From Escherichia coli (GTDB lineage: Bacteria > Pseudomonadota > Gammaproteobacteria > Enterobacterales > Enterobacteriaceae): a DNA stretch of 64,000 nt. Made by a program: the position numbers and the translations under genes. Of this stretch, positions 47,641 to 52,920 are shown in pieces. The stretch is taken from NCBI RefSeq assembly GCF_003334785.1, contig NZ_QOWV01000004.1; one strand, 5' to 3'. The notes beneath the pieces are model-generated. The model searched no databases. It saw only the letters and a program-made list of their open reading frames with translations, and was not told the DNA's origin. The first letter of the stretch is position 1. Each line of letters starts with the position of its first letter.

Positions 47641-47649
47641 AAAAGACAG

Positions 47650-47680
47650 AAAAAAAGCCCCGATGGTAAAAATCGGGGCT
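47650..47680 (-). terminator. intrinsic terminator of deaD
   Basis: Hairpin agccccgat-ggtaaaa-atcggggct with a T-run on the minus strand, about 40 nt after the deaD stop. Confidence 0.7.
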
Positions 47681-47722
47681 GTATATATTATTTTACAGAT
47701 TGTGTTCGCTGTTCAGCGATGA

Positions 47723-49612
47723 TTACGCATCACCACCGAAACGACGACGACCGGTAGAATCATCACGACGCGGAGCGCGGCCTTCACGACGTTCGCCGCT
47801 AAAACGACGACCATCACCACGGCCACCTTCACGGCGTTCACCGCTGAAGTTACGACCGCCTTCACGACGTTCGCCACCGAAACCACGACCACCGCCACGA
47901 CGCTCACCGCCAGTATGCGGCTGTGCATCGCCCAGTAACTGCATGTTCATCGGCTTGTTGAGAATGCGAGTGCGCGTAAAGTGTTGCAGCACTTCACCCG
48001 GCATACCTTTCGGCAGTTCGATGGTGGAGTGAGAAGCAAACAGCTTGATGTTACCAATGTAACGGCTGCTGATGTCGCCTTCGTTAGCAATCGCACCAAC
48101 GATATGACGAACTTCAACACCATCATCGCGGCCCACTTCAATGCGGTACAGCTGCATATCGCCAACATCACGACGTTCACGACGCGGACGATCTTCACGG
48201 TCACCACGCGGGCCACGGTCGTTACGATCGCGCGGACCACGGTCATCACGGTCACGGAATTCACGTTTCGGACGCATCGGCGCATCTGGCGGTACGATCA
48301 GAGTACGTTCACCCTGTGCCATTTTCAGCAGTGCCGCAGCCAGAGTTTCGAGATCCAGCTCTTCACCTTCAGCAGTCGGCTGAATTTTGCTCAGCAGTGC
48401 GCGGTATTGATCCAGATCGCTGCTTTCCAGCTGCTGCTGTACTTTAGCGGCGAATTTTTCCAGACGGCGTTTGCCTAGCAGTTCTGCGTTCGGCAGTTCT
48501 ACTTCCGGAATAGTCAGCTTCATAGTACGTTCAATGTTGCGCAGCAGACGACGCTCGCGGTTCTCAACGAACAGCAGCGCGCGGCCAGCACGACCCGCAC
48601 GACCGGTACGACCGATACGGTGAACGTAAGACTCAGAATCCATCGGGATATCGTAGTTAACTACCAGGCTGATACGCTCAACGTCCAGGCCACGGGCTGC
48701 AACGTCGGTCGCAATCAGGATGTCCAGACGACCATCTTTCAGGCGTTCCAGTGTCTGTTCACGCAGCGCCTGGTTCATGTCACCGTTCAGCGCGGCGCTG
48801 TTGTAGCCGTTACGCTCAAGAGCTTCAGCCACTTCCAGAGTCGCGTTTTTGGTACGAACGAAGATAATCGCCGCATCAAAATCTTCCGCTTCCAGGAAAC
48901 GTACCAGTGCTTCGTTTTTGCGCATACCCCAGACAGTCCAGTAGCTCTGGCTGATGTCAGGACGGGTAGTCACGCTGGACTGAATGCGCACTTCCTGCGG
49001 CTCTTTCATAAAGCGGCGGGTAATGCGACGAATCGCTTCCGGCATGGTTGCAGAGAACAGAGCGGTCTGATGACCTTCCGGGATCTGCGCCATAATGGTT
49101 TCAACGTCTTCGATGAAGCCCATGCGCAGCATTTCGTCAGCTTCATCCAGAACCAGACCGCTCAGTTTAGAGAGGTCCAGAGTGCCACGTTTCAGGTGGT
49201 CCAGCAGACGGCCCGGAGTACCGACAACGATCTGCGGCCCCTGACGCAGGGCGCGTAATTGCACGTCATAACGCTGGCCGCCGTACAGAGCAACCACATT
49301 TACGCCGCGCATGTGTTTAGAGAAATCCGTCATTGCTTCAGCAACCTGTACCGCCAGTTCGCGGGTCGGTGCCAGCACCAGAATCTGTGGTGCTTTCAGC
49401 TCAGGATCAAGATTCTGCAACAGAGGTAAAGAGAATGCTGCAGTTTTTCCGCTCCCCGTCTGGGCCATACCCAGAACGTCGCGGCCATTCAGCAGATGTG
49501 GAATACACTCTGCCTGAATTGGAGATGGTTTTTCGTAACCCAGATCGTTAAGGGCTTCAAGGATAGGAGCCTTCAGGCCCAGATCTGCAAAAGTGGTTTC
49601 GAATTCAGCCAT
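47723..49612 (-). CDS. deaD: DEAD-box ATP-dependent RNA helicase (CsdA) with Arg/Gly-rich repetitive C-terminus
   Basis: ORF 47723-49678; start refined to [16 protein letters not shown]; helicase motifs AQTGSGKT and DEAD. Confidence 0.9.
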
Positions 49613-49685
49613 GTAGTACGTGTGCCTCAAAATTAATGGCGGCCAGTCTACATAACTCATCATGAAATTGATCAGCAATTTTCAT
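49605..49685 (-). CDS. yrbN: small protein (26 aa) overlapping the deaD start
   Basis: Minus-strand ATG at 49683-49685 gives [26 protein letters not shown], stop TGA overlapping the deaD ATG; below the ORF-track size cut-off. Confidence 0.6.
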
Positions 49686-49791
49686 TGAAAAGTGTGAACC
49701 GGCTCAAAGTAGGTGTATTAACGAACAACAACGCCCTCACCCGTTAAGGTGATGGCAATCAAAAAAGATTACGGGCTGATGTGTACGTCAG

Positions 49792-50676
49792 CTATTGCTG
49801 GTCCGATTCTGCCAGGTCATCTTGGTCCTGGCCCAGGAGCGATAATTCCAACAATGCGTATCGGTGCTCAACAAAGTTATGAACGTTGTTGGCAACCGCC
49901 AGTTTGAACAGTGCCGTGGCGCTGTCCAAATCCCCCAGACTTAGGTAGTACTTACCTAAATAGAAGTTGGTTTCACTGAGATGCTCAGCGAGCGAGGTGT
50001 TATCCGTTGCGTCCGCCTTGAGCCTTTCCATTAACGTTTGTTCGCTAATGTTGCCCAGGTAGAACTCGACAATGTTCCATCCCCACTGTTCCTTATCCGA
50101 TTTTTCGAAGTGCTGTTTCAACACTTCTTTAGCCTGCTTCTCATCGAGCTTCTGCTCGGCGAGATAAAGCCACAGACTACGGAAAGGATCATTGGGATCG
50201 TCTTGATAAAACGCCAGCAGATCATCTTGCGCTAACTTGTCACGACCGCCGTAATATAATGCGATCCCGCGATTCAAGTGCGCGTAGTTGTAAGTTGGAT
50301 CAAGCTCAAGTACAGAATCAAACGCTTCATAGGCAGCATCAAAATTGCCTGCCTGCGTTAAATATATGCCTAAGTAATTGAATACTTCAGGCATATCCGG
50401 TCGGATTGCCAGCGCTTGCGAAAAATCGTTACGCGCTAATGCCCTCAGACCGAGACTATCATACAACACTCCGCGCTCATATAAAAGCTGTGCGCGTTCG
50501 TCATCGGTTAAAGCCCGACTGGCAAGGATTTGTTCCATACGTGCCAGAATCACTTCCTGCTGTAAAGTCGGTTGCAATGGTACCGCGAGGACTTCACTTT
50601 TACGCCAGGAAGTATTACTGCATCCTGCAAGCGTAAGTGCTGTCGCAACGAAACACCAGCGCAAAAAAGGCTTCAT
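49792..50676 (-). CDS. nlpI: TPR-repeat outer-membrane lipoprotein
   Basis: 294-aa ORF with lipobox LTLAGC and TPR repeats. Confidence 0.9.
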
Positions 50677-50784
50677 TTCCCACTCCCGAAGACCACGGTT
50701 GAATGAACGTCCTGTTCCCGGTTGCTAACAAGGCGTCCTGCCCGGTTAAAAGCCCCCCGCCGCAGCGGAGGGCAAATGGCAACC

Positions 50785-52920
50785 TTACTCGCCCTGTTCA
50801 GCAGCCGGAGCTTCCGGTGCTGCAGCAGGTTGAGACTGCTCAGTCGCTTCTTTAATGCTCAGACGGATACGGCCCTGGCGATCAACTTCCAGAACTTTCA
50901 CCGGTACTTCCTGACCCATCTGCAGGTAATCGGTCACTTTCTCAACGCGTTTGTCAGCGATTTGAGAGATGTGGACCAGACCTTCTTTACCGCCGCCGAT
51001 GGCAACAAATGCGCCAAAGTCAACGATACGGGTCACTTTACCAGTGTAGACGCGGCCCACTTCGATTTCTGCAGTGATCTCTTCGATACGACGAATAGCA
51101 TGTTTCGCTTTCTCGCCGTCGGTCGCTGCAATCTTCACAGTACCGTCATCTTCGATTTCGATGGTGGTGCCAGTTTCTTCGGTCAGAGCACGGATTACAG
51201 AACCGCCTTTACCGATAACATCTTTGATCTTGTCCGGGTTGATCTTGATGGTATGGATACGCGGTGCGAACTCAGAGATATCGCCACGCGGCGCGTTGAT
51301 CGCCTGTTCCATTACGCCCAGGATATGCAGACGCGCACCTTTAGCCTGGTTCAGCGCAACCTGCATGATCTCTTTGGTGATACCTTCAATTTTGATATCC
51401 ATCTGCAGTGCAGAGATACCGTCGCGGGAACCTGCAACTTTGAAGTCCATATCGCCCAGGTGATCTTCGTCGCCCAAAATGTCAGACAGTACAACGTAGT
51501 TGTCGCCTTCTTTCACCAGACCCATTGCGATACCCGCAACGGCAGCTTTGATCGGCACACCTGCGTCCATCAGCGCCAGAGACGCGCCGCACACGGAAGC
51601 CATAGAAGAGGAACCGTTGGATTCAGTGATTTCAGACACAACACGTACGGTGTACGGGAATTTGTCCATATCCGGCATGACTGCCAGCACGCCGCGCTTC
51701 GCCAGACGACCGTGACCAATTTCACGACGCTTCGGAGAACCGACCATGCCGGTTTCGCCTACGGAGTACGGAGGGAAGTTGTAGTGGAACAGGAAGGTAT
51801 CGGTACGTTCGCCCATCAGTTCATCAAGAACCTGCGCGTCACGAGCAGTACCCAGCGTTGCGGTAACCAGCGCCTGCGTTTCACCACGGGTGAACAGCGC
51901 AGAACCGTGAGTACGCGGCAGCACGCCAGTACGCACATCCAGACCACGGATCATATCTTTTTCACGACCGTCGATACGCGGTTCGCCTGCCAGTACGCGG
52001 CTACGAACAACGTTTTTCTCGATCGCGTGCAGAATTTCACCCAGTTCGTTTTCGTCCAGGGTTTCGTCTTCAGCAAGCAGCGTCGCGATGGTTTCAGATT
52101 TGATGACATCAACCTGCGCATAACGCTCTTGTTTGTCGGTGATGCGGTAAGCATCGCTCAGGCGAGCTTCAGCCAGTGCAGCAACGCGCGCGTTTAGCGC
52201 TTCGTTTACCGGCTCCGGCTGCCAGTCCCAACGCGGTTTACCGGCTTCTTTCACCAGTTCATTGATGTTCTGAATAACAACCTGCTGTTGTTCATGACCG
52301 AACACTACTGCGCCCAGCATCTGGTCTTCGCTCAGCAGTTGAGCTTCAGATTCAACCATCAGTACAGCGGCTTCAGTACCGGCAACAACCAGATCCAGTT
52401 TGCTCTCTTTCAGCTCGTCCTGAGTCGGGTTCAGTACGTACTGGTCATTGATGTAACCTACGCGGGCAGCACCAATCGGGCCATTGAACGGAATACCAGA
52501 CAGAGACAGCGCTGCGGAAGCACCAATCATCGCGACGATATCCGGGTTAACTTGCGGGTTAACAGAAACCACGGTGGCGATAACCTGAACTTCGTTGACG
52601 AAGCCTTCCGGGAACAGCGGGCGAATCGGGCGGTCAATCAGACGCGCGATCAGGGTTTCGCCTTCGCTTGGGCGGCCTTCACGACGGAAGAAGCTACCCG
52701 GGATACGACCAGCAGCGTAGGTACGCTCCTGATAGTTAACGGTCAGTGGGAAGAAGTCCTGACCTGGTTTGGCTTTTTTCTGGCCAACAACGGTAACGAA
52801 TACCGCGGTGTCATCCATGCTAACCATAACAGCGGCAGTAGCCTGACGAGCCATCATGCCGGTTTCCAGAGTCACGGTGTGTTGGCCGTACTGGAATTTA
52901 CGAACGATCGGATTAAGCAA
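50785..52920 (-). CDS. pnp: polynucleotide phosphorylase
   Basis: ORF 50785-53007; start refined to the TTG before [20 protein letters not shown], giving 711 aa; RNase PH, KH and S1 domains. Confidence 0.92.

Follow-up and report, generated by a model that had tools for sequence, protein, structure and literature searches.

Overlapping gene pairs such as trpE-trpD and trpB-trpA are translationally coupled by termination-reinitiation, and in translation attenuation of the ermC/cat type, a leader ORF unfolds a sequestered ribosome-binding site; the cspA leader is a long structured 5′ UTR that acts as an RNA thermosensor and contains no translated ORF. DeaD (CsdA) is a major cold-shock helicase on which ribosome assembly and the remodelling of mRNA depend at low temperature, and its tight autoregulation operates via an unusually long leader in which yrbN is, to our knowledge, the only translated element known. 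Coupling through an upstream ORF (uORF) is also described for iraD, under CsrA control (PMC5574718). For yrbN itself, the 8-nt overlap with deaD and a possible leader-peptide role were described, as a suggestion, in a 2021 preprint, and the coupling idea is thus already in print.

The stretch analysed here (the window) comprises 64,000 nt of Escherichia coli DNA (contig NZ_QOWV01000004.1, assembly GCF_003334785.1), and all of the features described below lie on its minus strand. The initial annotation had called a 26-codon ORF with its ATG at 49685-49683, and sequence and translation bear this out: yrbN spans 49605-49685, with 26 codons followed by a TGA at 49607-49605, and it sits between nlpI and deaD on the same strand, ending at the start of deaD. 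The name given to it was also right; the annotation 'yrbN: protein YrbN' is present in 5426 of 5426 complete E. coli genomes, the peptide matches NCBIfam NF033440 ('small_YrbN') with 76.3 bits (cut-off 33) over residues 1-26 of 26, and the orthologous small genes of Dickeya, Lonsdalea, Musicola, and Ewingella carry Pfam PF28071. We found no difference from the YrbN family (E. coli b4685; NF033440; PF28071), sequence, length, and nlpI-deaD position all being identical, and the yrbN described here is the founding member. An ORF of this kind is by itself not more than expected by chance, the 4.5 kb surrounding yrbN containing 76 ORFs of 20 aa or more, and we judge yrbN to be real because of its annotation and conservation, not the presence of an ORF alone; it is a previously known annotated gene, and the 26-codon frame is real.

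As read from its sequence, YrbN has no membrane-spanning hydrophobic stretch, its longest hydrophobic run being ~5 residues because charged and polar residues (K2, D5, Q6, H8, D9, E10, R13, N18, E20, H22, and H25) interrupt it. Hemm and coworkers are said to have found in 2008 that inner-membrane proteins are the majority class of small proteins, and the tagged YrbN protein was reportedly detected by epitope tagging in that work. We also considered the label 'yrbN_PAIR_0', which appears in a figure legend of PMC6001520, as a possible YrbN paralogue and rejected it; the cold-induced protein meant is YnfR, which adjoins cspI and has no similarity to YrbN.

The deaD gene spans 47723-49612, with its ATG at 49612-49610 and a protein beginning MAEFETTF. 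The yrbN stop had been described as overlapping the deaD initiation codon, which is right for the ORFs, as these overlap by 8 nt (ATGGCTGA, 49605-49612), but not for the codons, as the TGA lies 2 nt past the ATG and has no base in common with it. The deaD Shine-Dalgarno (SD) sequence, GAGG (49625-49628), lies within yrbN codons 20-21 at a long spacing, 11-12 nt before the deaD ATG; it is invariant in both of our alignments (A1 and A2), and its duplex with the anti-SD is calculated at -5.6 kcal/mol at spacing 11. We found no usable SD for yrbN here, its best anti-SD duplex being discontinuous and only -3.9 kcal/mol.

Placement of yrbN within the deaD leader is in accord with the published transcription start site (TSS; ~50450), 838 nt 5′ of the deaD ATG, with mutagenesis of the -10 element (PMC7430678). 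A promoter scan locates the promoter of the long deaD/yrbN transcript, TTTATA and TATGAT separated by 16 nt, inside nlpI (50450-50485); it is the sole promoter-like site in 49500-50600, the same as the published deaD promoter, and the scan found no promoter-like or terminator-like site between yrbN and deaD. With this TSS and no further promoter-like site, yrbN and deaD are on one transcript, and the two are co-induced in Erwinia amylovora RNA-seq. Rho and RNase E act on the leader, which is also the route of DeaD autoregulation; the determinants lie in several regions upstream of -101, a construct without -820 to -101 lost nearly all regulation, and all constructs kept the last 100 nt of the leader, yrbN included (PMC7430678). 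GFP fusions with 738 or 838 nt of the deaD leader were both silent in the 2021 preprint, so the yrbN segment added no visible activation, which counts against the coupling model. The accessible literature contains no report of yrbN translation affecting DeaD synthesis, nor of a specific tie to cold induction, and we found in it no yrbN start-codon or premature-stop mutants with a deaD reporter.

To compare the locus among relatives, we used 84 Enterobacterales loci from four families, with 51 distinct leaders, picked and registered by an anchor consisting of the first 13 nt of a conserved block (block U, see below) upstream of yrbN. A search with E. coli DeaD gave relatives in E. coli and Salmonella only, and the loci of two 50%-identity representatives, P0239 and P0240 (56% identity), were without nlpI synteny and without the motifs. 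The nlpI-yrbN-deaD arrangement is common to the 84 loci, the yrbN ATG is invariant (84/84), and the frame is kept in all 51 distinct leaders. None of the 30 distinct variants of yrbN codons 3-8 has a stop in the yrbN frame, as against 13 of them in each of the other two frames. Wherever the ORF extends to deaD, indels preserve the frame, and the two ATGs are then 73, 70, or 67 nt apart. Ahead of the SD, the variable segment measures 9 or 6 nt, except for 10 nt in Dickeya and Musicola, whose yrbN has stopped by that point.

Across the 51 distinct leaders, the yrbN stop falls between -16 and +11 nt relative to the deaD ATG, and the 8-nt overlap is found in 46 of them. Lonsdalea has an 8-nt overlap ending in TAA (ATGACTAAG) beside a different deaD codon 3, Serratia and Ewingella have an 11-nt overlap (ATGACTACTGA), and yrbN stops 11-16 nt short of the deaD ATG in Dickeya, Musicola, and Pantoea eucrina, and reinitiation through the overlap is therefore not universal. 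Codon 2 of deaD is NCT in all overlapping cases, where a TGA or TAA must be formed, and Dickeya and Musicola, with their earlier yrbN stop, have GCA; where the deaD N-terminus changes, the stop is re-created as TAA or shifted by one codon. The comparison shows yrbN to be conserved as an ORF, with its stop staying next to the deaD start.

The peptide itself undergoes radical changes at positions 3-6, 9, 12, 17-19, and 22, and in the Cedecea/Buttiauxella group, C12 is replaced by R. Ahead of the stop, the sequence is variable (HVLHG, LVLHG, LALHG, RVHDY, HVLHD), and Dickeya, Musicola, and Pantoea lack these residues; the loss of the C-terminus cuts YrbN to 18-19 aa in three genera. A core, F-[HL]-D-E-L-C-R-L-A-A-I, is kept as amino acids across four families, and the conserved residues map exactly onto RNA blocks that are invariant in nucleotides. 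Block M (GAGTTATGTAGACTGGCCGCC, 49638-49658), which covers yrbN codons 10-16, is nearly nucleotide-invariant, wobble positions included: four of five codons with invariant amino acids are also invariant in nucleotides, versus three of 52 in deaD (Fisher p=4e-4), and the variants inside the block are mostly non-synonymous.

An M-like block is also kept in the Orbaceae irrespective of reading frame. The Orbus uORF is frame-shifted, such that the block is read in another frame, Gilliamella has the block with the ORF absent, and Frischella has L-R-K-L-A at the matching place in different codons, within a peptide that NF033440 does not recognise. The RNA element can therefore function in the absence of yrbN, the block being kept in Orbaceae where no ORF is conserved. 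The alignments show that block M is constrained at the RNA level, and the conservation of the YrbN peptide is largely secondary to RNA conservation. The 3′ part of nlpI has the same kind of synonymous-site conservation.

Block U (GAGCCGGTTCACACTTTT, 49688-49705) lies just 5′ of the yrbN ATG and is nearly invariant, the sole change being one C>T in Serratia symbiotica, although its first 13 nt are the locus-selection anchor; block D (GAGGCACACGTACTACATG, 49610-49628) is the deaD translation initiation region (TIR). Block M is predicted to have two pairing options, either with block U as the 5′ arm of hairpin A (-18.5 kcal/mol in E. coli) or with the deaD SD/AUG region, block D then being the 3′ arm of hairpin B (-13.7 kcal/mol in E. 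coli), in which the AUG and three of the four SD bases are buried; yrbN codons 11-16 are the ones predicted to pair with the deaD SD and AUG. Hairpin A has 99.8% of cells paired across the leaders, without covariation, and hairpin B has 94.7% paired across the 51 leaders, with zero compensatory changes and the U64-A90 pair broken in 17 of the 51. Neither RNAalifold nor explicit pair counting found a compensatory pair in either hairpin, and because every pair is invariant or changed on one side only, both remain predictions.

The M:D duplex is calculated at -12 to -16 kcal/mol in seven lineages with differing TIR sequences, versus -6 to -7.5 for shuffled M, and is 2.4-4.7 sd stronger than these controls; for the Gilliamella duplex (-13.4 kcal/mol), no shuffled control was run. 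U:M pairing was no better than its shuffled controls in Enterobacterales when the whole upstream region was the search space, and only M:D was. These calculations show the pairings to be possible in each lineage examined. A further predicted hairpin, inner to these (UGAAA(A).../...UUUCA, 49664-49683), would bury the G of the yrbN AUG and hold the variable codons 3-7 in its loop, and the alignment contains bulge-to-pair changes in Klebsiella/Raoultella and Franconibacter. With no SD and a partly buried AUG, yrbN is perhaps only weakly translated. Folding of the E. coli segments in silico at 37°C and 15°C gave no clear temperature switch, and an Rfam search of 47500-51500 on both strands at permissive thresholds gave no credible match, the only one being anti-hemB, located elsewhere, with 18 bits against a gathering score of 49.5.

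Our preferred reading, to which we give a probability of about 0.45, is that yrbN is a genuine leader ORF, translated from the long deaD mRNA and coupled in cis to deaD initiation, with the peptide secondary; the comparative data suggest that it is mainly a translated leader over a conserved RNA element that controls the deaD start. A coupling or upstream-ORF role was already proposed in the initial annotation, and it fits the anatomy and the comparative data, since the stop stays within -16 to +11, deaD codon 2 follows the pattern described above, and codons 11-16 are predicted to pair with the deaD start. When untranslated, block M would form hairpin B, engaging the SD and AUG of deaD, or else hairpin A, with block U as its partner. 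Ribosomes starting at the yrbN AUG would then traverse the invariant block M and terminate 2 nt past the deaD AUG, so that yrbN translation would unfold the deaD initiation region and release ribosomes there, feeding the deaD start. Translational coupling would thus consist of unfolding together with termination-reinitiation and would make up for the poor spacing of the deaD SD. The U/M/D pairings would presumably form in vivo; we infer that translating yrbN has a positive rather than a negative effect on deaD translation, and the same goes for any link to the cold.

We also considered that the yrbN region could be a three-block RNA switch (U, M, and D) lying under a translated leader that senses ribosome speed, which we regard as improbable. 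Ribosomes slowed on yrbN, by cold or by elongation inhibitors, would sit on block M, and a ribosome held at the AGA codon would keep M off the deaD SD and AUG, switching on DeaD synthesis. The rare codons in yrbN, which hint at programmed stalling, are AGA (codon 13), UUA, and CUA; the AGA is invariant and is ~20 nt 5′ of the deaD SD. According to work cited in PMC11890864, cold-shock proteins, including DeaD, are induced by cold as well as by antibiotics of the chloramphenicol type, and a switch of this kind would, if true, be a concrete mechanism for DeaD induction by both. The same switch could be the point where DeaD helicase activity feeds back on its own translation.

Among other explanations, YrbN might be a small protein acting in trans, for example as a partner or modulator of DeaD, the ribosome, or the degradosome, with the overlap only ensuring co-expression. 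The ORF is conserved and matched by curated protein models (NF033440 and PF28071), the core is kept at the amino acid level in four families, Frischella arrives at L-R-K-L-A through different codons, and the tagged protein was reportedly detected; however, the conserved residues are those of the nucleotide-invariant blocks, with wobble positions fixed, and the rest of the peptide changes radically or, in three genera, is cut short. The replacement of C12 by R, the reading of the block in another frame in Orbus, the missing ORF in Gilliamella, and the failure of NF033440 to recognise the Frischella peptide further argue against a trans-acting protein, and we consider it unlikely. A frame open all the way to the deaD start, leaving no untranslated gap, is also what would be seen if yrbN translation mainly shielded the end of the leader and the deaD junction from Rho-dependent termination and RNase E, instead of opening the deaD start or supplying it with ribosomes. 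Such shielding would suit a leader that is a Rho and RNase E target with DeaD autoregulation, and one in which deletion of -820 to -101 abolished nearly all regulation while the yrbN-containing last 100 nt was always retained, but yrbN spans only 81 of the 838 leader nucleotides, the autoregulation determinants map upstream of -101, and the nucleotide invariance of block M and its complementarity to the deaD start are left unexplained; we think this explanation unlikely.

The nucleotide invariance beyond coding needs could also mean that the ORF is incidental and the conserved thing is a non-coding RNA element, comprising U, M, and D and acting as a structural switch or a protein-binding site, with yrbN not meaningfully translated. 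The M-like block without a conserved ORF in Orbaceae, the lack of an SD together with a partly paired AUG (as predicted), and the similar synonymous-site conservation in the 3′ part of nlpI are consistent with this; yet an incidental ORF would not account for the avoidance of stops in the yrbN frame alone across the variable segments, for in-frame indels and ATG-ATG distances of 73, 70, or 67 nt, for a stop that is re-created or moved by one codon as the deaD N-terminus changes, or for the reported detection of the tagged protein, and we hold an RNA-only element to be unlikely. Lastly, the upstream region could be an N-terminal extension of DeaD, from an in-frame ATG or TTG, with no separate gene, as in legacy models of 646 and 651 aa. 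The deaD frame is open back to a TTG at 49678 in E. coli, and many database entries give DeaD 646 or 651 aa, but current RefSeq models begin at MAEFETT, the invariant GAGG precedes the downstream ATG, and in Tenebrionibacter (L054), LSJC7 (L066), and a MAG (L072), a TAG two codons 5′ of the deaD ATG interrupts the extension and leaves the yrbN frame intact. We therefore rejected the extension, which is very improbable indeed.

As a genome-scan finding, yrbN is ordinary, being annotated everywhere and with the coupling idea published before; the result of the analysis is that the conservation of the YrbN peptide largely follows from that of the RNA. If yrbN couples ribosomes to the deaD start or senses their speed, it would place a translational layer atop the control by Rho and RNase E, and it would be a tidy case of a small 'protein gene' in which translation as such, not the peptide, is the true product.

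Of the systems described to date, arrest peptides (SecM, TnaC, SpeFL) are unlike YrbN, in which the residues before the stop are variable or absent. Like cspA, deaD is a cold-shock gene with a long conserved leader, which has a cold-box-like motif downstream of nlpI and alternative predicted structures that would expose or hide the start region; unlike that of cspA, the deaD leader carries yrbN, and its folding in silico at 15°C and 37°C is without a clear switch. The resemblance to ermC/cat and iraD is that a short leader ORF holds the 5′ arm of a predicted hairpin covering the downstream SD and AUG, such that a ribosome on the yrbN leader would free those of deaD. In contrast to those systems, yrbN has no known stalling signal or inducer, it runs through the regulated start site rather than ending before it, and its hairpin is predicted only, without covariation. 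Compared with the coupled pairs trpE-trpD and trpB-trpA, yrbN is a 26-codon ORF without an SD rather than a full-size gene, its overlap with deaD is 8 nt rather than 1 or 4, and deaD has an SD of its own; as in those pairs, however, the stop of yrbN and the start of deaD are a few nucleotides apart on one mRNA, and the overlap is kept, being restored where the N-terminus of the downstream protein differs.

The 26-codon ORF reported ahead of deaD runs from an ATG at 49685-49683 to a TGA at 49607-49605 (minus strand), and sequence, translation, and annotation all bear it out. Such an ORF is unremarkable by itself, because the surrounding 4.5 kb contain 76 ORFs of at least 20 aa; it is, however, the known gene yrbN and a YrbN family member by every feature tested here, an already known feature and not a new one as a scan finding. 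Many complete E. coli genomes match the region at 100% identity, and 'yrbN: protein YrbN' is annotated at the locus in 5426 of 5426 complete RefSeq E. coli genomes. The peptide scores 76.3 bits (cut-off 33) against NCBIfam NF033440 'small_YrbN', Pfam PF28071 'YrbN' is assigned to orthologous small genes in other genera, and UniRef holds a YRBN_ECOLI cluster with 229 Enterobacteriaceae members and a further Yersiniaceae cluster with 32. The deaD ATG is at 49612-49610 (minus strand; protein MAEFETTF...), and the two frames have 8 nt in common (ATGGCTGA). The ORFs thus overlap, but the yrbN stop does not overlap the deaD start codon as the initial annotation had it: the two share no base, and the stop lies 2 nt downstream of the ATG.

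The placement of yrbN in a long deaD leader also holds, with the promoter inside nlpI, 838 nt upstream (Ojha and Jain, PMC7430678). We recovered this promoter (TTTATA-16-TATGAT, 50485-50458, TSS ~50450, minus strand) in the window, and found no second promoter-like site and no terminator-like site there between it and deaD. A 2021 preprint (10.1101/2021.03.08.434349) credits the discovery of yrbN to Hemm et al. 2008, places it within the 838-nt csdA/deaD leader with the 8-nt overlap, and raises a leader-peptide role as a possibility, without a functional test.

Other parts of the leader also stand out. Among 72 Enterobacterales species, the 3′ two-thirds of nlpI (49792-50450, minus strand) contains nucleotide islands that are near-invariant, wobble positions included, strongest at ~49792-50020 and at codons 111-125, 151-165, and 221-245, unlike the first 80 deaD codons, which have ordinary wobble variation. 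The internal deaD promoter is upstream of all these islands, so this stretch of nlpI seems to serve both as coding sequence and as conserved leader RNA of deaD. Directly 3′ of the nlpI stop codon, TGACGTACACA (49780-49790, minus strand) resembles the cold box of the cspA leader, an 11-nt element (TGACGTACAGA). Its 5′ part, CTGACG, is conserved across Enterobacterales, and the site is close to position -173, which PMC7430678 cites as the '5′ end' from earlier primer extension.

To the 80 nlpI-deaD loci sampled at one genome per species (Enterobacteriaceae, Serratia, Rahnella, Pantoea, and Edaphovirga) we added seven from Pectobacteriaceae and Yersiniaceae; the leader is present in 84 loci, with 51 distinct sequences. 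The yrbN ATG is invariant in all 84. Codons 3-8 are variable, and none of their 30 distinct nucleotide variants has a stop in the yrbN frame, versus 13 of 30 in each other frame. The variable segment before the deaD Shine-Dalgarno (SD) sequence comes in 18 variants of 9 nt and 9 variants of 6 nt, the sole 10-nt variant being that of Dickeya and Musicola, where yrbN has already ended. In 46 of the 51 leaders the yrbN stop ends at +8 of deaD. Lonsdalea has AAG as deaD codon 3, and the stop is re-created as TAA (ATGACTAAG); Serratia and Ewingella, whose YrbN peptide is the same as that of Yersinia, have an extra deaD codon and a stop ending at +11 (ATGACTACTGA). The yrbN TGA of Dickeya and Musicola overlaps the SD, 11-12 nt upstream of the deaD ATG, and the TAA of Pantoea eucrina is 16 nt upstream of it. 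Codon 2 of deaD is GCT or ACT in all overlapping cases and GCA in Dickeya and Musicola, as would be expected if its T is held to form the yrbN stop.

The peptide itself is mostly not conserved. Radical changes are found at positions 3-6, 9, 12, 17-19, and 22 (ADQ, TLN, VPI, AQK; D9V; C12R; INF, NDI, IYS), and the C-terminus is missing in three genera. Conserved residues fall on three invariant or near-invariant nucleotide blocks (minus strand): U (49688-49705, GAGCCGGTTCACACTTTT), directly 5′ of the yrbN ATG, whose first 13 nt are the anchor that picked and registered the loci; M (49638-49658, GAGTTATGTAGACTGGCCGCC), which is yrbN codons 10-16; and D (49610-49628, GAGGCAC..GTACTACATG), the deaD SD and start, or translation initiation region (TIR). 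Within yrbN codons 1-16, an invariant degenerate amino acid also has an invariant codon in four of five cases, versus 3 of 52 in the first 80 alignable deaD codons (Fisher p=4e-4). Within M, most of the variants alter the amino acid (E>K, L>V, C>R, A>T), against a single synonymous type (GCC>GCT), a pattern opposite to that of ordinary protein-level selection. Codons 19 and 22 (columns 78/81 and 90/91 of leader alignment A2, ~49622-49634, minus strand) change together with few exceptions, being TTT...CAC (F...H) in some genera and ATC/ATT/ATA...CTT/CTC (I...L) elsewhere; in the I...L group the coupled bases make a small predicted hairpin, CGAG/CUUG, right over the deaD SD. This coupling could be RNA-level covariation, an i/i+3 peptide contact, or shared ancestry.

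In the predicted folds M has two alternative partners, which exclude each other. In hairpin A it pairs with U (GCCGGUU/GACUGGC and so on; -18.5 kcal/mol for E. coli, -16 to -21 across all 51 leaders), and an enclosed inner hairpin (UGAAA/UUUCA), whose loop is made up of the variable codons 3-7, buries the yrbN AUG G. In hairpin B, M pairs with D (UAUGUAG/CUACAUG, and GGCC with the two Gs at the end of GAGG; -13.7 kcal/mol); if formed, this hairpin would hide the deaD AUG and most of its SD. Across the 51 aligned leaders, paired cells make up 99.8% for hairpin A and 94.7% for hairpin B, a third of the leaders break one pair of B, and compensatory changes are absent from both, so covariation speaks neither for nor against them. 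At its best, the M:TIR duplex reaches -12.3 to -16.3 kcal/mol, versus -6 to -7.5 (sd ~2.3) for shuffled M, in E. coli, Serratia, Dickeya, Pectobacterium, Pantoea, Frischella, and Orbus; lineages with different D sequences (GUACUACAUG, GUGUACAUG, AGUUUACAUG) thus give the predicted M:D pairing independent support. U:M pairing is no better than its controls in Enterobacterales. The deaD SD is an invariant GAGG 11-12 nt from the ATG, and yrbN lacks a usable SD (its best anti-SD duplex is discontinuous, at -3.9 kcal/mol).

In the Orbaceae, gammaproteobacteria of the bee gut whose DeaD shares ~72% identity with the E. coli protein, pnp, nlpI, and deaD stand in the same order, with a long nlpI-deaD spacer (220-350 nt) that contains conserved blocks. 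We compared the 60-320 nt upstream of deaD in Frischella perrara, Orbus hercynius, and Gilliamella apicola. The TIR (AAGCGAGTTTACATGACAAAAG) is identical among them, and an M-like block, UUACGUA[AG][GA]CUGGCAU, is conserved; in Frischella it is part of a uORF of 28 codons whose end is 12 nt upstream of deaD, in Orbus a 1-nt difference shifts it to another frame, that of a 21-codon ORF, and in Gilliamella it is 143 nt upstream, without an ORF (M:TIR duplex -13.4 kcal/mol, without shuffled control). NF033440 does not recognize the Frischella peptide. Frischella and Orbus have an upstream CATGCCAGT block complementary to M, and pairing of their upstream GCCAGU block with M gives a comparable signal. 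Since the upstream ORF is not conserved among the three loci, the deeply conserved object is, on this comparison, the RNA, on which the yrbN frame is superimposed and maintained in Enterobacterales. An 857-aa 'ATP-dependent RNA helicase DeaD-like' entry (P0462) with TPR domains, listed under the stalk-eyed fly Teleopsis dalmanni, shares 83% identity with Frischella DeaD; it is apparently an nlpI-deaD fragment from contaminating Orbaceae that was mis-modelled as a single gene in the insect assembly.

The sequences demonstrate both the pattern of conservation and that the pairings are possible; from this we tentatively propose, at a probability of about 45%, that yrbN acts in cis, as a translated leader. 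Ribosomes passing over M would block its pairing with the deaD start region and would terminate 2 nt past the deaD AUG, so that yrbN translation would both open the deaD initiation site and supply it with ribosomes. The coupling or upstream-ORF role suggested in the initial annotation is accordingly plausible, with partial support from the comparative evidence; the structures in vivo, the direction of the effect on deaD, and any cold connection are what we infer. We count against the cis-acting leader the lack of covariation, the broken B pair, the weak yrbN initiation signals, the non-overlapping stops in three genera, the Orbaceae RNA block without an ORF, and a GFP fusion that was not activated when extended by the yrbN segment (10.1101/2021.03.08.434349). 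A switch sensitive to ribosome speed or helicase, built of yrbN and the three blocks, is doubtful; if true, it would account for DeaD induction by cold and elongation inhibitors.

A trans-acting small protein is an unlikely reading of a frame that stays open while its residues change radically. Somewhat less probable is that ribosomes on yrbN protect the distal part of the leader against Rho and RNase E, through which DeaD represses itself via the leader; the determinants of this autoregulation are scattered along the leader, and the paper describing them nowhere mentions yrbN, although the last 100 nt of the leader, yrbN included, are present in all its constructs (PMC7430678). An element that is purely non-coding, its ORF being incidental, would suit the Orbaceae loci, but the stop-codon and indel statistics speak against it, and we consider it improbable. 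That the region is an N-terminal extension of DeaD is refuted. Many database entries (P0008-P0025, P0047, and others) give DeaD 646 or 651 aa, starting from an in-frame upstream ATG or TTG and crossing yrbN (49613-49678, minus strand) in another frame; these legacy models fail in three taxa with a TAG two codons before the deaD ATG, where the yrbN frame is open, and the extensions are therefore annotation artefacts. Two metagenome gene calls, P0001 (829 aa) and P0002 (742 aa), match most of the E. coli DeaD sequence at 100% identity yet exceed it by 110-200 residues, and are probably mis-called or chimeric ORFs.

No Rfam family matched the yrbN region. YrbN differs from ribosome arrest peptides, because its residues before the stop vary, and from small membrane proteins, because it has no hydrophobic span. 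By analogy, the yrbN-deaD arrangement may be likened to translationally coupled overlapping gene pairs, and to leader-ORF systems that unfold a sequestered ribosome-binding site, whether of the ermC/cat type or as in the coupling of the iraD uORF (PMC5574718).
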